Source: an uncultured Candidatus Peribacteria bacterium (GTDB lineage: Bacteria; Patescibacteriota; Gracilibacteria; Peribacterales; Peribacteraceae). Taken from it: a DNA stretch of 32,209 nucleotides. The notes under the pieces were generated by a model. It was not told the origin of the DNA. It was given only the letters and a program-made list of their open reading frames with translations, and made no database searches. Below are positions 3 to 10,572 of this stretch, piece by piece. Position 1 is the stretch's first letter, and every line of letters starts with the position of its first letter. The stretch lies in the NCBI GenBank assembly GCA_964619805.1, contig CAZUFJ010000018.1, positions 1 to 32,209 on the forward strand, in the 5' to 3' direction. Position numbers and translations under genes: made by a program.

Positions 3-1502
3 GGTCTCTGCAAGAAGCGAACGCTCACGCAGTTTCCACCGGAGAACGGACAGGTCTTCTACTGCTCTGCGTGTTGGCACAGCGATACGTGGGACGCGCA
101 TGACTATGGTCGAGACATCGATTGGAATCGTCCATTCTTTGGACAGCTCACCGAGCTTCGGCGCGCTACTCCTGCGATTGCATTGAGTGTGCAAGGTGAG
201 TGCCAAAACTCTGATTACATTCATTACGCTGGATCGAGCAAGAACTGTTACCTCATCATGCATGCGGACTTCTGCGAGGATTGTTACTACGGCTACGGGT
301 TCAAGAAGGACCGCTGCTGCGTCGATGGCTTCTACAACCTCCACAGCGAACTCTTGTATGACTGCGTCGACTGTCACAAGTGTTACGGTCTCAAAGGCTG
401 CCAAGATTGTCTCAACTGTTCATCGAGCGCGTTCCTCCGTGACTGTATCGGCTGTAAAGACTGCTTCCTCTGCATGGGGCTCAGGAACAAACAGTATTGC
501 TTTGAGAACGAGGAGCTTTCGCGCTCGGAGTACGAGAAGAAGATGAAGGAGATCAATACGGGATCCTATTCTCAGTACCAAAGTTTCAAAGCACGGAGGA
601 GAGAGCTCGAGAAGTCACACACGTTCAAGGAATTCCAGGGACACAATCTTGAACATTGCAGCGGAAATCACCTCTACAACTGTAAGAACGTACTGGACAG
701 CTTCGACTGCGAGGATGTCGAAGATGCGCGGTACTGCACGCAGCTCGTGCTCGGGTCCAAGAACGTCTATGACGTGTATCAGTACGGTTCCAATCTCCAG
801 AATTCCTATGAGTGCGCGATCTGCGGAGAAAATTCACAGGGCATTCTCTCTGGTATGGAGTGTCATCTCAATTCGTACGGCCTCTCCCACTGTTTCTACA
901 TGGAAGCATCCAAAAACTGCTTCGGCTGCGCGAGCATGCAGCGCGGTTCATACTGCATTCTGAACAAGGAATATTCTAAGGGAGAGTATGAGTCGCTCGT
1001 GCCCAAACTGATCGAGCACATGAAGAAGCACGGTGAATGGGGAGAATTCCTGCCGCTCGGCTCGAGTGAGTTCGGGTACAACAAAACAACGGCACAGATG
1101 TATTACCCGCTCACGAAGACCCAAGCAGAGGAACGTGGATTTGTGTGGGATGACCGAAAAGATGAGCCACCGAAGGCAGACAAAGTCATTGATGCAGACC
1201 AACTCCCCGATGACATTCGCGATATTCCGGACGACATCCTTAACTGGGCGATTCGCTGCGAAGTCACGGGCAGGCCCTTCAAAATCATCAAGCAGGAACT
1301 CGAGTTCTACCGTCAGCAGACGATCCCCGCGCCGCGCCGGAGCCCCGAGCAGCGGCACCTGGATCGTTTCGCACTCAGAAACCCCAGGCAATTCTGGGCT
1401 CGTCACTGTGCAAAATGTACAAAAGAGATCCAGACGACGTACGCTCCAGACCGTCCAGAAATCGTCTACTGTGAATCTTGTTATCTGAAAGAAGTATACT
1501 GA
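3..1502 (+). CDS. Cys-rich zinc-ribbon repeat protein, paralog A (5' partial, open to window edge)
   Basis: Frame 3 has no stop from nt 3. Residues upstream of the listed TTG at 183 (YCSACWHSDTWDAHDYGRDIDWNRPFFGQL) align with WDPLSYGRDVDFTRSFFEQF and WDPLSYGKDFDFSRSFFEQL in ORFs 1509-3215 and 8541-10259, so coding continues off the 5' edge. It has two blocks of dense NCY/DCYY/CxxC repeats. The C-terminal module is DDILNWAIRCE..RPFKIIKQELEFYR..RNPRQFWARHCAKC..YCESCY. Function unknown. Confidence 0.8.
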   Translation, partial: GLCKKRTLTQFPPENGQVFYCSACWHSDTWDAHDYGRDIDWNRPFFGQLTELRRATPAIALSVQGECQNSDYIHYAGSSKNCYLIMHADFCEDCYYGYGFKKDRCCVDGFYNLHSELLYDCVDCHKCYGLKGCQDCLNCSSSAFLRDCIGCKDCFLCMGLRNKQYCFENEELSRSEYEKKMKEINTGSYSQYQSFKARRRELEKSHTFKEFQGHNLEHCSGNHLYNCKNVLDSFDCEDVEDARYCTQLVLGSKNVYDVYQYGSNLQNSYECAICGENSQGILSGMECHLNSYGLSHCFYMEASKNCFGCASMQRGSYCILNKEYSKGEYESLVPKLIEHMKKHGEWGEFLPLGSSEFGYNKTTAQMYYPLTKTQAEERGFVWDDRKDEPPKADKVIDADQLPDDIRDIPDDILNWAIRCEVTGRPFKIIKQELEFYRQQTIPAPRRSPEQRHLDRFALRNPRQFWARHCAKCTKEIQTTYAPDRPEIVYCESCYLKEVY

Positions 1503-1508
1503 CGGTCC

Positions 1509-3215
1509 ATGGGAATGATCTGTGCCAATTCCTGGTGTAAGCGGAGCTTCGATATTGCGGACGATGAAGTCGCTTTTTTGAAGAAGCTGACCTTTACGTT
1601 TGGTGATCGCACCATCGAGATGCCGCTCTCGGATCGGTGTCCTGATTGTCGGACACAAGCGCGTACTGCGCATCGTAATGAGCAGTTCCTCTATAAGACG
1701 CGCTCGAAGTTGTCCGGCAAGGAAATCGTCGCGCTCTATGCGCCAAATCCGGTCGCGGGTAAGGCGCTCCCTGTCTACAGCCAGGACGAATGGAGGAGCG
1801 ACGCGTGGGATCCGCTCTCGTATGGACGCGATGTTGATTTCACACGATCGTTCTTCGAACAATTTGCAGCATTGCAGCACGCGGTCCCGCGCATGGCGCT
1901 CATCACCATTGCGAATGAAAACTCGGATTTCTCGACGGGGACAGGCTACTGCAAAAATTGCTACCTGATCAATTCGTCCGAAAACTGCGAGGATTGTTAC
2001 TATGGAAAATTGCTCCAGAAATGCCGAGACTCGGTGGACTGCAGCTACCTCTATGACTCCGAGCTCTGCTACGAATGCTTCAGTGTCTTCGGGAGCCACA
2101 ATTGCCAGCATCTCTCCTTCAGCCAAGACTGTCAGGATTGCTTCTTCTCCTCCAACCTCAAATCCTGCAAGAACTGCTGCCTCTGCACCAACCTCGATCA
2201 CAAGGAGTACTACTTCCAGAATGAACCGCTCAGGAAAGAAGCATATGAGAAACGCCTGACAGAATTTCGCGGCAGCTTTACGCGCACGCAGCAAATGAAA
2301 GAACTCTGGAAGCGTGTGAGAATTTCCACAGTGAAAAAATACGCGAATATCATGAACTCCGAAGGCTGCACCGGTGATTATATCGAAAATTCGAAGAACT
2401 GTCTGGAGTGTTACGACGTCACGGACAGCCAAGATTGCAGGTCTGTGCAAGTCGGCGTCAATGTGAAGGATAACTATCACTGCTCAAACATGTATCTGAA
2501 ACCCGAGCTCTGCTACGAAACACTCGGTACGATCGAGGTGCACACTGTCGCATTCTGCCTCTACATCTTTCACTCGCAGCGGATGCTCTACTCGGAGTAC
2601 TGCTTCCATTGCAGCGACTGCTTCGGGTGCTCGGGGTTAACGCGCAAGAAGTTCTGCGTTTTCAATAAACAATATTCGAAGGAGGAATACGCATCGCTCG
2701 TCCCGAACATCATCGACCATATGAAAACCCCGTACCAGTCGCCTGCGGGCTCCGGTTCATTCGGCAAGTTCTTTCCTTCAGCCCTTTCGCCCTTCGGCTA
2801 CAACGAAACGCTGGCCTCGGAATATTTCCCCCTTAAGCGAGAGGAAGCGATCGCACGGGGATTCCATTGGCGCGAGAAAGATGCACGAGATTTTTTACCA
2901 CAAAAAGCGCCGGTTCCCGAGAGCATCGCGGAAGTGACGGATCAGTTACTTCAGGAAATATTCTCCTGCGAGGATTGCCGGAAGAATTTCCGCATCATCC
3001 CACAGGAGCTTGCGTTCTATCGTCGAAATTTAATTGCGATTCCGCACATATGCCCCGATTGCCGGAACAACGAGCGCATGCAGCAGCGAAATTCACGCAA
3101 GCTCCACGATCGCAATTGTTCGCATTGCGCGAAGTCGCTCCTCTCCACCTATCACCACGACCGTAAGGAAGTCATCCTCTGTGAAGAATGCTTTAGGTCC
3201 GCATTATACGCGTAG
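1509..3215 (+). CDS. Cys-rich zinc-ribbon repeat protein, paralog B
   Basis: 568-aa ORF starting 6 nt after paralog A. N-terminal CxxC..CPDCR..RNEQFLY module. Two Cys-rich blocks, each ending in a K(K/Q)(F/Y)C.(F/L)N.(Q/E)YS.EEY motif. C-terminal CEDCRKNFRIIPQELAFYR..CPDCR..RNSRKL.DRNCSHC..CEEC module. Clearly homologous to A and to 8541-10259. Confidence 0.85.
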   Translation: MGMICANSWCKRSFDIADDEVAFLKKLTFTFGDRTIEMPLSDRCPDCRTQARTAHRNEQFLYKTRSKLSGKEIVALYAPNPVAGKALPVYSQDEWRSDAWDPLSYGRDVDFTRSFFEQFAALQHAVPRMALITIANENSDFSTGTGYCKNCYLINSSENCEDCYYGKLLQKCRDSVDCSYLYDSELCYECFSVFGSHNCQHLSFSQDCQDCFFSSNLKSCKNCCLCTNLDHKEYYFQNEPLRKEAYEKRLTEFRGSFTRTQQMKELWKRVRISTVKKYANIMNSEGCTGDYIENSKNCLECYDVTDSQDCRSVQVGVNVKDNYHCSNMYLKPELCYETLGTIEVHTVAFCLYIFHSQRMLYSEYCFHCSDCFGCSGLTRKKFCVFNKQYSKEEYASLVPNIIDHMKTPYQSPAGSGSFGKFFPSALSPFGYNETLASEYFPLKREEAIARGFHWREKDARDFLPQKAPVPESIAEVTDQLLQEIFSCEDCRKNFRIIPQELAFYRRNLIAIPHICPDCRNNERMQQRNSRKLHDRNCSHCAKSLLSTYHHDRKEVILCEECFRSALYA

Positions 3216-3271: not shown

Positions 3272-5287
3272 ATGGCCGCAAGCGCCCTCCGCTATCTGCA
3301 CATCATGATTCCCCAGGGGGAACCCGAGGGGCAAAAGCGCGAATCGAAGTTTCAGGAGCTCCTCATCAACCTTCGCAACACGTTCACGGGGCGCAGGGTG
3401 TCGCTCGAGTATTTCGGCTACGCGCAGTACACGTATTTCTTTCTCGTGATCGAGGAGAGCCTGTTCGAGACGATCGAGGGATTGATCTACGCGACATTCC
3501 CGGAGGCGGAAATCAAAGAGGTGCAGGACTACACGGAGATGTTTGATCCGAAGCGACAGGCGATCGCCGGCGCGGAAATCACGCTCCATCATTCCGATAT
3601 TTACCCGATTAAGACGTTCGACATGTTCGAGGAAGACAGCGCCTCGCGCTTCTTCTCCGTCGTTTCCAAGATCGGCCCCCTCGATCAGGCGTGGGTGCAG
3701 ATCATCGCGGAGCCGCAGGATGACAGCGGATCGTATCATTTCCTTCGCAAGTGGCGGATTCGCATGGCAAATATGCGTCACTTTTTCAGCGTTCGCGACC
3801 GGATGCGCGAGGGCGGCCGCAAAGTCATCAACGCAATGCGGCATACGAAGGCGCATGAGAAAGCGGACGTGAAGCCGTTCACGGTGAGCATCCGTTGCGC
3901 GTACGTGTCGGATACCGACGAGAATGCGCGAAGGAAACTGGAGGCCGTCATCTCCAGCTTCTCGCAGTTCAATGACCGCGATATCAATGAATTTCACGGG
4001 CACGCATTGCATGGGAATGGATTCCTGGATCGGTACCGCGCACGCACGCACGCAACGACCTTTGTTCTGAACGCCAAAGAGGTCGCGACGCTCTACCATT
4101 TCCCAAATACCGATTACGTGTCACACATCGTGCATGTGCTCGCGCGTAAGAGCGACCCGCCGCAGGATCTGCCCCGCATCGGCCAGAGCGCGGTCTCCGG
4201 ATTCGGCGTCACGAACTATCACAACAGCCGCATTCCGTTCGGCATCCGACGCGAGGATCGCCGCCGCCACCTCTACACCGTCGGCAAATCCGGCGTGGGC
4301 AAAAGCAAGTTACTCGAGCTCCTCATCAACGAAGATATCAAGAACGGCGAAGGGTTCGCGGTCTTGGATCCGCACGGAGACTTGGTAGACAACGTGCTCC
4401 GGTTCATCCCGAAAGAACGTATAGACGACGTGGTGCTGTTCGACCCATCCGATACGAACTTTCCGATTGCGTTCAATCCGCTTGAGAAGGTTGATGACGC
4501 CTACAAGATGCAGGTCACGATCGGCTTCATCGATATCTTCAAGAAGCTCTTTGGCGGCAACTGGACGTACCGGTTGGAGCACGTGCTTCGGTACACGACG
4601 CTCGCGCTCCTCGATAGCCCGAATACGACGGTGCTCTCGATCCTCAAAATGTTGACGGACAAAAACTACCGCCAGAAGATCGTCGCACGCATTCAGGATT
4701 CGGTGGTGAAGAGTTTCTGGGTGTCGGAATTCGCAGCATGGTCCGAGAAATTCGATGCAGAGGCGATCACGCCGCTCCTCAACAAGGTCGGCCAGTTCGT
4801 CGCGACGAACATGATCCGCAATATCGTCGGCCAGTCGAAAACGAAATTCGACATTCGGGACATCATGGACCAGAAGAAGATCCTCCTGATGAAAGTTTCG
4901 AAGGGCTTGCTCGGCGAGGAAAATTCCTCGCTCATCGGTTCGATGGTGATCACGAAGCTCTATCAGGCGGCGATGAGCCGCGCCGCGATCGCGGAGGATA
5001 AGCGCACGGATTTTTATTTCTACATCGATGAGTTCCAGAACTTCGCGACCGATACGTTTGCCGAGATCCTCTCGGAGTCCCGTAAGTACCGCCTCTCCCT
5101 CACGATCGCGCACCAGTACATGGGGCAGCTCAAGGATGTCGTGCGCAAGACCGTGTTCGGCAACGTCGGCTCCATCGTGAGCTTCCGCGTCGGCGCGGAG
5201 GATGCGACGATCCTGGAGGGCGAATACAATCCCGTCTTCAAGGAGCGCGACATCATCAACCTGGGCGTCCGCGAGTTCTACATCTAG
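3272..5287 (+). CDS. VirD4/TraD-like (type IV coupling protein family) P-loop ATPase, soluble form, ended by an in-frame TAG
   Basis: Walker A is TVGKSGVGKSKL. Walker B-like is FYFYIDEFQNF. TIAHQYMGQL is typical of TraD/TraG/VirD4-type NTPases. The roughly 330-aa N-terminal region has no obvious TM helices. A TATAAT box at 3258-3263 lies 8 nt before the ATG. The stop TAG at 5285-5287 is followed directly by an in-frame ATG. Confidence 0.85.
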   Translation: MAASALRYLHIMIPQGEPEGQKRESKFQELLINLRNTFTGRRVSLEYFGYAQYTYFFLVIEESLFETIEGLIYATFPEAEIKEVQDYTEMFDPKRQAIAGAEITLHHSDIYPIKTFDMFEEDSASRFFSVVSKIGPLDQAWVQIIAEPQDDSGSYHFLRKWRIRMANMRHFFSVRDRMREGGRKVINAMRHTKAHEKADVKPFTVSIRCAYVSDTDENARRKLEAVISSFSQFNDRDINEFHGHALHGNGFLDRYRARTHATTFVLNAKEVATLYHFPNTDYVSHIVHVLARKSDPPQDLPRIGQSAVSGFGVTNYHNSRIPFGIRREDRRRHLYTVGKSGVGKSKLLELLINEDIKNGEGFAVLDPHGDLVDNVLRFIPKERIDDVVLFDPSDTNFPIAFNPLEKVDDAYKMQVTIGFIDIFKKLFGGNWTYRLEHVLRYTTLALLDSPNTTVLSILKMLTDKNYRQKIVARIQDSVVKSFWVSEFAAWSEKFDAEAITPLLNKVGQFVATNMIRNIVGQSKTKFDIRDIMDQKKILLMKVSKGLLGEENSSLIGSMVITKLYQAAMSRAAIAEDKRTDFYFYIDEFQNFATDTFAEILSESRKYRLSLTIAHQYMGQLKDVVRKTVFGNVGSIVSFRVGAEDATILEGEYNPVFKERDIINLGVREFYI

Positions 5288-5518
5288 ATGTCCGTGAACG
5301 GCGAAGTGCGCGAAGCGTTTTCTGGACGCACGCTCGATGTGCCGCACGTCACGGAGGATCACACGCAGGAGATCATTGCCGCGTCGCGGGCGAAGTATTG
5401 TGAGCCGCGTGCGAATGTAGAGGAGATGCTGAAGCGCTGGGATGAAGCTTCGTCGGCGCCGCCAGACCCGGGTGAAATTGCGGAGATCGAGGAGAAGTTT
5501 GAAGAGCCACTCCTGTAG
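5288..5518 (+). CDS. Detached C-terminal segment of the VirD4/TraD-like ATPase (or a separate 76-aa coupled ORF)
   Basis: Same frame as 3272-5287, with zero spacing (TAGATG). From memory of related proteins, ..EFYI*MSVNGEVREAFSGRTL.. looks like one continuous conserved block. Acidic tail EIAEIEEKFEEPLL. Confidence 0.55.
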   Translation: MSVNGEVREAFSGRTLDVPHVTEDHTQEIIAASRAKYCEPRANVEEMLKRWDEASSAPPDPGEIAEIEEKFEEPLL

Positions 5519-5593: not shown

Positions 5594-5649
5594 CTTGAGC
5601 GTTCGCTATCACGCTTCGCAGTATTTTAATTTGAATGTATTCTCATTGT

Positions 5650-6162
5650 ATGAAAAGGCTTCTCCTCATTGCGGTTCCTCTTCTTATCCTTTCTGCCTGT
5701 GCAAAGAAAGCGGAGAGTGACGTTGGTGTTGGAAAACAGATTGGCAGCCAAACGCTTAAGCAAGTCATGCCGGGTGAGGGTCCCATTGATACACCCGACC
5801 ACGGCAAAGAATTCTGGCTTGGCGTCGGTGCGATGGGCGGGGCACCGGGAATCAATGCCAATGGCGTTACCCAGGCGCATTACCTGGAGGATGGGACGTT
5901 CATTCATACGATCCAACTCAATATCGAGCGTGCCCCGGATGGATCATTCTACGAGGGGTGGCTCGTGAATCCGGAGGGGCTTCGTATCAGTACAGGCCAT
6001 TTGCGTACCCCATTCGGCGATGTTCGCCACCAATTGAAGTACTTGGGAGAGAAGGATCTACGGTTCTACACCCGGGTGGAGGTGACGTTGGAGGCCGATG
6101 ATGGCAATCCTGCAGCCGGAACGATTGTTGCGACGGCGGAACTAACGCCACGCGAACGATAA
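5650..6162 (+). CDS. Putative lipoprotein
   Basis: MKRLLLIAVPLLILSAC has a signal peptide and a lipobox Cys. I prefer the start at ATG 5650 over 5635. The C-terminal part (FYEGWLVNPEG..ISTGHL..VEVTLEADDGNP) faintly resembles RskA-type extracytoplasmic domains. That resemblance is weak. Confidence 0.65.
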   Translation: MKRLLLIAVPLLILSACAKKAESDVGVGKQIGSQTLKQVMPGEGPIDTPDHGKEFWLGVGAMGGAPGINANGVTQAHYLEDGTFIHTIQLNIERAPDGSFYEGWLVNPEGLRISTGHLRTPFGDVRHQLKYLGEKDLRFYTRVEVTLEADDGNPAAGTIVATAELTPRER

Positions 6163-8540: not shown

Positions 8541-10259
8541 CTAATACACTACTTTTTCATAGCAGGATTCGCAGAGGATTTGTTCCTTACGATCGGGAGA
8601 AAATGTCGTTTGGAGATCTTTTTTGCAGTTTGAACACTCTCGATCCCAGAGACGACGGGGGTTCCTGCGCTCCATGCGAAGGCGATGACGTTCGTCGGGG
8701 TGAAGGCGGGGGATTGGGAGCTTCATCTCTCGATAAAACTCCAGTTCTTGCTTGATCAATTTGAATGGTCGTTTTGTAGCCTCGCATTCAATTGCCCAGT
8801 TTAGGATGTCATCTGGAACCTCATCAATAGAGCTTGGCAGTGCGGATGCAGGAATAATTTTTTCGGCTTTTGGTACCTCTTCTTTTTGGGTTCGCCATTT
8901 CCACCCACGCTTTTTTACATCTTTTTCAGTGAGCGGGTAATAATCCTGCGCTAATGACTCGTTATAGTCGTACGGAGCTGTTTCCATTGGGAAAAACTCA
9001 CCCCATTCCTTTGCCTGCCCCGCCGTAGCTCCGTCTGAGCGAAGGGGGGTCTTTCTCATATGCTCAATAATCCGGGGCACCAGCTCTTCATATTCCTCCT
9101 TGGTGTATTGCTTATTCAAAATGCAATAGTTCTTGTGTCTCAGACTGATACAACCGAAGCAATCGCCACATGTATTCATCGTGTCGCAGTAGTGCACGTT
9201 GCGGGATGTCCACGATCCCACGGTAAACAGGCAACCATACGCGCCGTATCCATAGCTTGTGCCTTCGTATCCTAGCTCTGCCTCCGTCGTGTGGCATACA
9301 TCCATCAGGTCCTTCACCTTGAATCCTGTGTACACGAATGCGCAATCTTCGCCGTACGAAAGATCGAAAGAGTGTCGAAGGTTGCGCGAATTTTGCAGGT
9401 AGTCGCCCTCCACGTTTTCACAATTCACGATGAAATGTGCGCGATGAGGTTGGGTACTGAGAAATTTTGCAAATTCATTTTGCATGGAGGCAATGCCTTC
9501 TGCTTCGATGCGCTTGAAGATTTCTTTCTTGCGCCTTGCAAATTCCTCCTCCGATAGCTGCTCGTTCTTGAAATTGAATTTTTTGTTGCGAAGGTTCACC
9601 GAAAACAGACTGTCGCTACATCCTTTGCAATCAAAAAGGAATGCAGACGTGTTGCAATTGGTACAGTTTTGCGAGAACGAGAGCTCGTAACATTTCTCGC
9701 AGTCCACAACTTCGTAGCATCGTTCCGATTCGTAGCAGTTAAGTGCATCAATGCACGATCGCGATTTGATGACCTGGGTGCCATAGTGACAATCCTCATC
9801 GTATTCCGCTGCGAAGAGCAAGTAACAATTTTTGTTGTACCCAGACATATTCACGTACGGAGAATTTTCGTTATTGAGAGCAATGAGTCCGAGTCTCGGC
9901 ACAACTTTTCGTAGCTCATGCAATTGTTCAAAAAATGAACGTGAAAAATCAAAATCTTTTCCATACGAGAGTGGATCCCACACATCGCTATTCCAAATGT
10001 CAGGCGCGTACACGACGAGTTCTTTTTCCGGTGAGTGTGCGGAGATAAAATCTTTTTTCGAAAAATCGCATGTACGGTGATAGAGCTTCCGCTCATTCCT
10101 CCACACAAGCCGGCGTTGCTGCCTGCAATCGGGACAGTGTGTCGGTGGGGGAATCTGCATTTTCTTGCCACCAAAGACAGGTGAAACCTTCGCAAGGAAT
10201 GCCAGATCTTCCTCGGAAATTTCAAACGTACTGCCGCAGGATGCACACACTTTCTCCAT
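8541..10259 (-). CDS. Cys-rich zinc-ribbon repeat protein, paralog C
   Basis: 572-aa ORF. N-terminal CASCGSTFEISEEDLAFL..HCPDCRQQRRLVWRNERKLYHRTC. Two Cys-rich repeat blocks. The C-terminal DDILNWAIECEATKRPFKLIKQELEFYR..RNPRRLWDRECSNC..CESCY is near-identical in pattern to paralog A. Starts 24 nt downstream of tRNA-Pro. Confidence 0.85.
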   Translation of the reverse strand: MEKVCASCGSTFEISEEDLAFLAKVSPVFGGKKMQIPPPTHCPDCRQQRRLVWRNERKLYHRTCDFSKKDFISAHSPEKELVVYAPDIWNSDVWDPLSYGKDFDFSRSFFEQLHELRKVVPRLGLIALNNENSPYVNMSGYNKNCYLLFAAEYDEDCHYGTQVIKSRSCIDALNCYESERCYEVVDCEKCYELSFSQNCTNCNTSAFLFDCKGCSDSLFSVNLRNKKFNFKNEQLSEEEFARRKKEIFKRIEAEGIASMQNEFAKFLSTQPHRAHFIVNCENVEGDYLQNSRNLRHSFDLSYGEDCAFVYTGFKVKDLMDVCHTTEAELGYEGTSYGYGAYGCLFTVGSWTSRNVHYCDTMNTCGDCFGCISLRHKNYCILNKQYTKEEYEELVPRIIEHMRKTPLRSDGATAGQAKEWGEFFPMETAPYDYNESLAQDYYPLTEKDVKKRGWKWRTQKEEVPKAEKIIPASALPSSIDEVPDDILNWAIECEATKRPFKLIKQELEFYREMKLPIPRLHPDERHRLRMERRNPRRLWDRECSNCKKDLQTTFSPDRKEQILCESCYEKVVY

Positions 10260-10283: not shown

Positions 10284-10359
10284 TGGTCGGGACGAGAGGA
10301 CTTGAACCTCCGGCCTCACGGTCCCGAACCGTGCGCTCTACCAACTGAGCTACGTCCCG
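10284..10359 (-). tRNA. tRNA-Pro (anticodon CGG), CCA encoded
   Basis: The minus strand reads CGGGACG-TA-GCTC-AGTTGGTA-GAGC-G-CACGG-TTCGGGA-CCGTG-AGGCC-GGAGG-TTCAAGT-CCTCT-CGTCCCG-A-CCA. Full cloverleaf, and the anticodon loop is TT-CGG-GA. Confidence 0.95.
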
Positions 10360-10572
10360 AATACGTTTGGTGATGGAAAGATCAGATCGAGGGCGAGCGT
10401 GCGATTCTTTATGACGCGCCGCAAGCGGCGCTAGGCAACTGAGCTACGTCCCGATACGTTTGGTGATGGAAAGATCAGATCGAGGGCGAGCGTGCGATTC
10501 TTTATGACGCGCCGCAAGCGGCGCTAGGCAACTGAGCTACGTCCCGAATACGTTTGGTGATGGAATGATCAG
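10342..10572. repeat. Tandem repeat, about 2.5 copies of 93-94 bp, containing the 5' 18 nt of tRNA-Pro plus about 75 nt of its upstream leader
   Basis: CAACTGAGCTACGTCCCGA starts at 10342, 10436 and 10529. Copies 1 and 2 are identical except for one A (CCCGAATACG versus CCCGATACG). The third copy diverges after GTGATGGAA near 10565. Each unit carries a GCGCCGC-AA-GCGGCGC hairpin. Confidence 0.95.

Follow-up and report, generated by a model that had tools for sequence, protein, structure and literature searches.

What kind of protein is encoded by a cysteine-rich gene that occurs three times on one contig of an uncultured Candidatus Peribacteria bacterium, and what might its copies do? We analyzed contig CAZUFJ010000018.1 of assembly GCA_964619805.1 over its full 32,209 bp (the window), focusing on the gene at 8541..10259 on the minus strand, an intact, ATG-started open reading frame (ORF) of 572 aa (copy C). 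The original prediction, made from the letters of the DNA alone, had described this gene as the third paralog of a family with homologous Zn-ribbon modules at both termini around two Cys-rich repeat blocks. Three paralogous copies are indeed present as ORFs, all inside 10.3 kb of the window. Copy B (1509..3215, plus strand, 568 aa) starts 6 nt 3' of copy A (3..1502, plus strand), a truncated gene of which at least 499 aa are visible; as the window is the whole NCBI contig, it is the contig end that truncates copy A. The three-way alignment is collinear over the full length, with 41% (copy B) and 43% (copy A) identity to copy C, and contains the near-identical stretch that had been noticed between copies A and C (DDILNWAI.CE.T.RPFK.IKQELEFYR). 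Our best overall explanation, to which we assign a probability of roughly 0.6, is that copy C belongs to a family of solenoid proteins capped by zinc fingers at both ends and serving as adaptors.

Copy C is a complete family member with the architecture Z-L1-S-h-S'-h'-L2-Z', in which the end modules Z and Z' enclose the solenoid blocks S and S', and homologues match it across its full length. We are highly confident in this architecture, in the internal duplications it contains and in the solenoid class. The N-terminal module of copy C (residues 1-95) matched its C-terminal module (residues 478-572) by BLASTP at E = 3e-10, as did the corresponding modules of copy B (E = 8e-8), and the profiles of the two modules, built from 70 family members, aligned over 77 columns with an hhalign probability of 99.7% (E = 1.5e-26). 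Blocks 1 and 2 (residues 126-262 versus 263-410) were similar by BLASTP (4e-7 and 1.5e-7) and, again with 70 members, by profile comparison over 131 columns (hhalign 99.8%, E = 6e-30). High Cys content is able in principle to inflate alignment scores, and the internal homology could be read as a compositional artefact of Cys- and Arg-rich sequence. In Smith-Waterman comparisons with 2000 composition-preserving shuffles, however, the observed score was reached by 0/2000, with z = 12.6 (copy C) and 10.8 (copy B) for the N- versus C-modules, 19.3 for the N-module of copy C versus the C-module of copy B, and 9.5 and 10.3 for the two blocks. Shuffled sequences thus never came near the observed scores (z = 9.5-19), the profile-profile E-values lay at 1e-26 and 6e-30, and many non-Cys identities are aligned (F..I...EL.FY, P.P, RN.R.L..R, NK.Y.KEEY). 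The shuffle and profile-profile tests lead us to reject the artefact reading, which we hold to be next to impossible. The terminal modules are therefore homologous by BLASTP, hhalign and shuffles alike, and the middle region does consist of two homologous Cys-rich blocks. The proposed origin by internal duplication stands for both pairs but needs amendment, as the mirrored domain order Z-S-S'-Z' implies two separate duplications rather than one tandem duplication of a half-protein.

Each end module comprises two predicted fingers of probable treble-clef type, a zf_Tbcl-like site 1 (PF13451) and a zf_Tbcl_2-like site 2 (PF23477, TIGR04272) with a CxxC-x17-CxxC arrangement, and the N and C modules match the same two Pfam finger families. 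In module Z (residues 1-95; 9975..10259, minus strand), site 1 of copy C reads C5-x2-C8...C42-P-D-C45 and is followed by the Arg-rich helix RQQRRLVWRNER. The C5/C8 and C42/C45 pairs are conserved at 96-100%, and site 2 is degenerate in copy C (C64, S67, A85, I88). In module Z' (residues 479-572; 8544..8825, minus strand), site 1 is degenerate in copy C, with C492 kept and H520 at a ligand position that is Cys in 42% of members; an Arg-rich helix follows, and then an intact site 2 (C542-x2-C545-x17-C563-x2-C566) whose four Cys are all 100% conserved. PF13451 scored 16.0 bits on the N-module of copy C (E = 0.012, residues 3-50), 20.3-22.9 bits on relatives and 21.0 bits on the C-module of copy B, all under its 24-bit gathering threshold. 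PF23477 scored 21.8 bits on the whole of copy C and 26.7 bits on the isolated module (cut-off 27 bits), and TIGR04272 18.5 bits (cut-off 36 bits). Across the 70 members, PF23477 matched 58 (E ≤ 0.01) and PF13451 matched 14. Site 1 of both modules carries the PF13451 pattern CxxC...F.(I/F)...E..F(Y)...P..CP.CR..R, and site 2 has the exact PF23477/TIGR04272 spacing. All three families are without known function, and our literature search found no papers on PF13451. In contrast to these families, the two fingers are here fused into one module of 95 residues (the N copy carries an insertion of 9 residues), and this module stands at both ends of a 560-aa protein. The LIM domain (PF00412), a pair of contiguous zinc fingers with a spacing of its own, was compared as well. 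An alignment with the C-terminal finger was obtained for its second half alone (CRP1/CRP2 chains in the PDB, E = 0.004), and 7/70 members matched at E ≥ 0.0012.

The finger cysteines also behave as sets. We measured Cys co-occurrence across 193 aligned members from the best 79 of at least 597 loci recovered in a genome scan. Phi lies at 0.97-0.99 among C67, C85 and C88 and at 1.0 between C495 and C523. Full C4 tetrads are found in 82% (N site 1), 22% (N site 2), 22% (C site 1) and 95% (C site 2) of members. The tetrads are kept or lost as whole sets, as metal sites would be expected to behave. Copy C would accordingly keep two predicted zinc tetrads (N site 1 and C site 2), its N site 2 and its C site 1 being lost. 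Copy B would keep three, retaining the full C-module site 1 (CEDC...CPDC) and lacking N site 2. Copy A, in which the visible N site 2 cysteines (the C67, C85 and C88 equivalents) are retained, probably keeps three, with the fourth N-site-2 ligand past the contig end. The Zn-binding terminal modules of the original prediction are thereby supported as homologous finger modules and refined to two fingers each, with half of the sites degenerate. Its common N-terminal pattern for copies B and C does recur in the C-module, but the first Cys pair of copy B is Cx4C, not CxxC.

Between the end modules, solenoid block 1 (residues 126-235; 9555..9884, minus strand) carries Cys at every third residue in a 12-mer super-period, (N/D)CxxCxxSxFLx, and ends ...LRNKKFNFKNEQLSEEEF. 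The homologous solenoid block 2 (residues 271-385; 9105..9449, minus strand) ends ...CGDCFGCISLRHKNYCILNKQYTKEEYEE. The helical hairpin h that separates them (residues 236-270; 9450..9554, minus strand; DSSP helices H237-254 and H257-267) is the most variable segment, with a conservation of 0.22-0.28. A consensus hexad, C-x-x-(C/S)-x-x, lies within the super-period, and each block closes with an NK.Y(S/T)KEEY-type helix. In the end motif proposed for both blocks, (R/T).K.(Y/F)C.(F/L)N.(E/Q)(Y/L)S..EY, block 1 of copy C has Asn in place of the Cys. In block 1, 97% of the summed Cys frequency falls in one phase modulo 3, and block 2 shows the same phase locking except for two phase shifts induced by indels. 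This strict every-third-residue lattice replaces the spacing of roughly 8-20 residues given earlier. Cys co-occurrence is positive at a spacing of 12 residues (+0.15) and negative at 6 (-0.16) and 18 (-0.08), which argues for coils of about 12 residues with an inward-facing residue at every third position. The inward positions are mostly Cys, and both blocks are acidic (-5 for block 1, -4 for block 2).

A full-length AlphaFold2 (AF2) model of copy C from a 70-sequence alignment reached a predicted local distance difference test (pLDDT) score of 85 and a predicted template modelling (TM) score of 0.86, with strands or bridges every six residues and period-6 strands over residues 353-380; an isolated block 1 was modelled at pLDDT 75.9. 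Foldseek searches with the isolated block returned almost only beta-solenoids (AlbG, HetL, EfsQnr, MfpA, tailspikes, pectate lyase, TBCC/RP2 and TmAFP), none of them significant, the best being AlbG (E = 4e-3, TM 0.25). The AF2 models and the Foldseek results thus favor predicted beta-solenoids over treble-clef finger arrays for the middle blocks, an answer to an alternative that the original prediction had posed. The phase-locked lattice, the 12-residue covariation and the solenoid models all speak for repeats that are structural rather than compositional.

Among known solenoids, the predicted blocks are geometrically nearest to the 12-residue type of TmAFP, the Cys-rich beta-helical antifreeze protein of Tenebrio molitor (PDB 1EZG/1L1I), with which they share the repeat length and inward positions at every third residue. 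TmAFP repeats TCTxSxxCxxAx, with positions 2, 5, 8 and 11 inward, compared with (N/D)CxxCxxSxFLx here. It was the sole PDB solenoid touched by the sequence profile (1EZG, hmmsearch E = 3.6, not significant), and the isolated block matched 1L1I in Foldseek without significance (E = 0.51, probability 0.20, 20% identity). However, the anti-correlation of Cys at a spacing of 6 (phi -0.16) means that the intra-coil disulfides which define TmAFP are not expected here. The Thr-x-Thr ice-binding face is absent as well, the Cys being flanked by N/D and by Y or variable residues, and the protein is bacterial and cytoplasmic, with two blocks set between zinc fingers. Without i/i+6 disulfide pairs and the TxT face, the blocks fall outside the TmAFP family. 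Pentapeptide-repeat proteins (AlbG, MfpA, Qnr and HetL) gave the best structural matches at the domain level. They are right-handed beta-solenoids with an acidic surface that act as small cytoplasmic regulators of DNA enzymes. They differ in having a period of 5 and 20-residue coils (3 and 12 here), the TM scores were just 0.17-0.25, and they have neither zinc fingers nor Cys ladders. The pentapeptide model PF00805 (tandem A(D/N)LXX) had no Pfam match in copy C or in the 70-member set, whose period is 3/6/12. The left-handed beta-helix hexapeptide model PF00132, built of [LIV]-[GAED]-x2-[STAV]-x hexads with 18-residue coils, likewise had no Pfam match; Foldseek placed gamma-CA, LpxD and GlmU at E ≥ 0.74 only, and Cys co-occurrence is negative at the 18-residue spacing of that class.

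Two linkers complete the protein. L1 (residues 96-125; 9885..9974, minus strand) contains a conserved W-SD-WDP..YG..FDF.R.FFEQ motif region. Helix h' with the acidic linker L2 (residues 386-478; 8826..9104, minus strand; L2 charge -4) contains the motif GEWGEFFP...SP(F/Y).YNE..AQ.Y(F/Y)PLT...RGW.W. The ratio of identity within to identity between orthogroups is highest in the solenoid blocks (1.45-1.47) and hairpin h (1.39), intermediate in L2 (1.22), and lowest in the end modules (1.18-1.20), L1 (1.05) and h' (1.04). The ends and linkers therefore form a constant part, whereas the solenoids carry paralog-specific information. Members contain 5-7% Cys. Copy C has neither a signal peptide nor a hydrophobic N-terminus and starts directly with a zinc finger.

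How widespread is this protein? We found at least 6010 matches among 90%-identity clusters and at least 3793 clusters at 50% identity (E ≤ 1e-3), 1595 of them at E ≤ 1e-30, and the family is nearly uniform in length and architecture. The best 79 loci derive almost all from Peribacteria/Peregrinibacteria, Gracilibacteria or Abawacabacteria bins. Seen so far, the family is confined almost entirely to this branch within the candidate phyla radiation (CPR, Patescibacteria). One family locus (L055, DUGF01000091.1) lies in a bin labelled Candidatus Micrarchaeota archaeon; as three of its flanking genes belong to clusters shared with bacterial loci or the window, mis-binning looks possible. Source names among the matches examined were "hypothetical protein", apart from a 147-aa fragment named "CxxC-x17-CxxC domain-containing protein". 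A PDB sequence search with the single sequence and the 70-member profile matched only LIM/CRP half-fingers (E = 0.004), apart from the non-significant TmAFP match. PHROGs gave weak matches to phrog_2834 and phrog_15341, both of unknown function, tblastn against phage and plasmid collections found no family relatives, and IMG/VR held one partial match.

Multiple copies are the rule: 56/79 loci have at least two, seven show at least seven within ~17 kb, and the largest array, on one Peregrinibacteria contig, has 10 copies in 21.7 kb. In bins sampled at two loci, the count rises to at least 14. Copies are co-oriented in 53/55 multi-copy loci; the gaps between them have a median of 57 nt, and 42% measure ≤ 30 nt. 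Of the members with a paralog at their own locus, 92% have their closest relative in another genome (median identity 59% versus 44%), and orthologues of copy C are 56-58% identical in the alignment, compared with 41-43% for its paralogs in the window. By this sequence comparison the duplications are ancient. The three copies, earlier singled out as an unusual expansion, are thus a family trait, with arrays reaching 10 genes and duplications that are old. Orthogroup order within arrays is shuffled between genomes, and we rejected positional orthology on this account. Arrays of relatives are in places broken by genes for a MazF/PemK-like toxin, a RelB/DinJ-like antitoxin or an ORF6N-domain protein (L065:935-1273, L001:9745-10110 and L069:6804-7355, among others), suggesting that they lie in plastic regions. 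Fusions are rare. In one protein (P0232, 731 aa) a GNAT acetyltransferase domain precedes a full family protein, and another (P0256, 808 aa) is extended at the C-terminus by 260 aa, the last part of which looks like a winged helix. We dropped fusion partners as a functional clue, one fusion and one extension being too few.

Which genes accompany the arrays? The recurrent layout consists of a divergent gene for a TrmB-like winged helix-turn-helix (wHTH) protein (~252 aa), one to several family genes, and a same-strand gene for a ~747-aa ATPase. The TrmB-like gene is immediately upstream of 34/111 visible run starts, and the ATPase immediately downstream, on the same strand, of 17/111 run ends. 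We consider it very probable that these genes form a conserved cluster. In the window, copies A and B are followed by the gene for a soluble DUF8128-VirD4/TraD/TrwB-like ATPase (3272..5518, plus strand). The ~747-aa protein matches the VirD4/TraD/TrwB/HerA-type Pfam models PF02534 (6e-11), PF10412, PF01935 and PF12696 and, below threshold, NCBIfam models for VirD4-like proteins, TraD and CedD. An N-terminal DUF8128 is recorded on an orthologue; our literature search found no papers on this domain. The ATPase sequence contains no N-terminal membrane anchor. Its ORF runs over 3272-5287 to an in-frame TAG (5285-5287) where relatives have Lys (...REFYI*MSVNGE... versus ...REFYCKMSVNGE...), and a further 76 codons follow in frame up to 5518; the gene could be a pseudogene or split, or the TAG a sequencing error. 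The ATPase also matches phrog_5156 (unknown function; E = 3.6e-66) and so, unlike the zinc-finger/solenoid family, has close homologues in phage genomes. Against PADLOC it matched mad8 weakly (4.8e-12) and several HerA models. The ATPase gene is followed at 5635-6162 (plus strand) by a small predicted lipoprotein gene with a weak RskA_C-like (anti-sigma-K C-terminal) match, and such a gene also follows the ATPase in one relative (L031:9630-10178). No TrmB-like gene lies in the window, that of the A/B array presumably being beyond the contig end. The divergent TrmB-like proteins share a median identity of 26%. A second type of TrmB-like HTH protein (cluster c4, ~255 aa, same strand) is encoded between family genes at L011:1134-1901 and three other loci, and the regulator itself would thus be a diversified paralog set. 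A TrmB-family mirror-tree test was not relied on, as it is confounded by shared ancestry.

We tentatively propose that the protein is a rigid, zinc-stabilised adaptor with a constant handle and a variable solenoid, a mechanism we regard as possible rather than probable. The constant end modules and linkers would serve as the handle for a shared partner, either a nucleic acid bound via the Arg-rich helices or the neighboring ATPase, and the paralog-specific solenoid faces would equip every paralog with a ligand or target of its own. The close, co-oriented arrays between a TrmB-like regulator and an ATPase suggest that the paralogs probably act with that ATPase. More speculatively still, the cluster may represent an undescribed lineage-specific system in which an exapted conjugation-type coupling ATPase acts on a dozen or more ancient zinc-finger/solenoid adaptors, each with its own target. 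Such a system might handle imported host DNA or RNA, or deliver proteins to the host.

Several observations weigh against the adaptor interpretation and parts of the architecture beneath it. The family core has no Pfam, NCBIfam or PADLOC match and hence no homology-based functional anchor, and all finger hidden Markov model scores are below the Pfam gathering cut-offs. Block pLDDT is just 64-72 in the full-length AF2 model, and as the two AF2 runs disagree on the strands of block 1, the exact solenoid geometry is not settled; Foldseek, run with the full-length model against the PDB and BFVD, returned nothing significant. The ends are only mildly basic (predicted charge +2 for the N-module and +4 for the C-module), so nucleic-acid binding is not compelling. 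As for the cluster, 71/131 runs are without an adjacent TrmB-like gene or ATPase, copy C being one of them, and many members are singletons. The TrmB-family co-variation (r = 0.40) is significant, though modest and partly due to shared ancestry.

The same neighborhood admits other functions. The paralogs could be cargo, either effectors or DNA-bound pilot proteins, that the adjacent VirD4/TraD-like ATPase recognises and that are exported, for example into the host cell of these presumed symbionts, much as substrate arrays in type IV and type VII secretion are encoded beside coupling or FtsK-like ATPases. The arrays recurrently close with the gene for the ATPase, which has type IV coupling protein (T4CP) domains, and multi-paralog arrays are typical of effector repertoires. 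Some type IV secretion system substrates bear Arg-rich, positively charged C-terminal signals, and the C-terminal module here is both. Passages of two studies also infer that Patescibacteria depend on hosts (PMC12102498, PMC4736985). However, the missing membrane anchor of the ATPase does not fit a secretion role, neither the window nor the 79 loci showed VirB4, VirB6 or other channel genes beside arrays, and a compact zinc-stabilised fold would need unfolding for export. The paralogs are moreover ancient and individually conserved across genomes, not diversified by lineage as effectors usually are, and in Ca. S. epibionticum ML1, the only Patescibacterium in which this was tested, the T4CP homologue was reported as non-essential for epibiotic growth (PMC12102498). 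We consider export unlikely. Alternatively, the acidic solenoids could mimic nucleic acids in the manner of MfpA, Qnr and AlbG, binding and regulating DNA-handling enzymes such as topoisomerases or the neighboring translocase-like ATPase, or acting as anti-restriction or anti-defence decoys. The domain-level Foldseek matches to AlbG, HetL, EfsQnr and MfpA, the acidity of both blocks (-5 and -4) and a neighbor from the DNA-translocase superfamily are consistent with this. Yet the matches are weak (E = 4e-3 to 0.3, TM 0.17-0.25, root-mean-square deviation ~10 Å), the repeat period is 3/6/12 rather than 5/20 with no Pfam pentapeptide match, and by the standard of DNA mimics the charge is modest. 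Mimicry also leaves four zinc-finger sites without a role. It seems very unlikely for any of these targets.

A defence function draws on the ATPase and on the plasticity of the arrays. Array, regulator and ATPase together could form an anti-phage or anti-mobile-element island or a domesticated mobile element, with the paralogs as sensors or effectors: the ATPase has its weak mad8, HerA and strong phrog_5156 (3.6e-66) matches, some arrays have MazF-like, RelB-like and ORF6N genes scattered among their members, and arrays are shuffled in composition and order from one genome to another. The family itself, however, lacks PADLOC matches as well as relatives in the collections of phages and plasmids, has only one partial match in IMG/VR, and no nuclease or other effector domain was detectable. 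It also appears widespread in the lineage, in vertically conserved orthogroups, unlike patchy defence genes, and we judge a defence role to be as improbable as mimicry. The Cys content (5-7% in members) raises a further possibility, that the proteins mainly handle metals or redox reactions, the solenoid Cys, such as those of the CxGCxxCxxC that closes block 1, binding many Zn ions or Fe-S clusters in a storage or buffering role or in electron transfer. CxxC pairs stack every 12 residues, and most members conserve a ferredoxin-like CxxCxxCxxC motif; Peribacteria proteomes are described as unusually Cys-rich in the parts of PMC4736985 that treat them. Solenoid Cys, however, are singly replaceable by Ser, Ala, Leu or Val and co-occur with phi ≤ 0.45, unlike the all-or-none finger tetrads, and copy C itself has neither C217 nor C220. 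Many invariant non-Cys residues together with paralog-specific conservation favor a binding scaffold over a bulk chelator, and a mainly metal-handling or redox function is highly improbable.

The family is possibly among the most expanded in Peribacteria and Gracilibacteria: at least 14 copies of ~1.7 kb in one bin amount to ~2% of a ~1-Mb genome, the full-length members examined are all annotated as "hypothetical protein", and a dozen ancient paralogs are rarely kept under strong genome reduction without a central role. The building blocks are of known kinds, treble-clef-type fingers and a beta-solenoid. Our literature search found no description of the fold combination, the Cys-ladder solenoid, the facultative metal sites or the cluster of array, TrmB-like regulator and DUF8128-VirD4-like ATPase. 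If true, the blocks would represent a new class of beta-solenoid with 12-residue coils and a Cys-ladder core, cytoplasmic and free of disulfides, and the facultative zinc sites and Cys-ladder solenoid make the family attractive for structural work and for following the decay of metal sites after duplication.

Linkage to the family also offers a concrete lead on orphan ATPases. Passages of a 2025 survey report 5,713 VirD4-like genes in Patescibacteria, 148 of them near virB4, raise exaptation, and acknowledge the function of these widespread ATPases as an open question (PMC12102498). The ATPase described here is likewise VirD4/TraD/TrwB-like and not beside virB4-type genes in the loci examined. 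Those passages make no mention of an N-terminal DUF8128, of a missing membrane anchor or of zinc-finger/solenoid arrays with TrmB-like regulators (PMC12102498). Were the proposed system real, it would explain the role of thousands of such orphan genes. A link to previously reported Cys-rich proteins of the same lineage was also considered. The Peribacteria proteins of Anantharaman et al. 2016 share the unusually high Cys content but, as given in Table S4 (PMC4736985), are 580-3860 aa long, mostly have signal peptides and are annotated as pappalysin- or FG-GAP-like. The copy C family is ~560 aa long, has no signal peptide and is absent from Table S4 and the passages searched, and we rejected an identity with what, in those parts of the study, is a different, extracellular set. 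The hypervariable gene of Sieber 2019 was also rejected, as it encodes an unrelated PTD-repeat protein.

Copy C itself stands as a singleton on the strand opposite copies A and B, between a tRNA-Pro gene and a citramalate synthase gene. The tRNA-Pro(CGG) gene (10284..10359, minus strand) lies 24 nt upstream of the copy C start codon on the same strand, and the two may share one transcript. Directly upstream of the tRNA gene, within the region 10284-10546, a 93-nt unit occurs twice in perfect tandem (10361-10453 and 10454-10546, minus strand). Each unit comprises the tRNA leader and the first ~18 nt of the tRNA, followed by unrelated sequence; these truncated 5' pseudo-copies of the tRNA could be a duplication scar or an assembly artefact.

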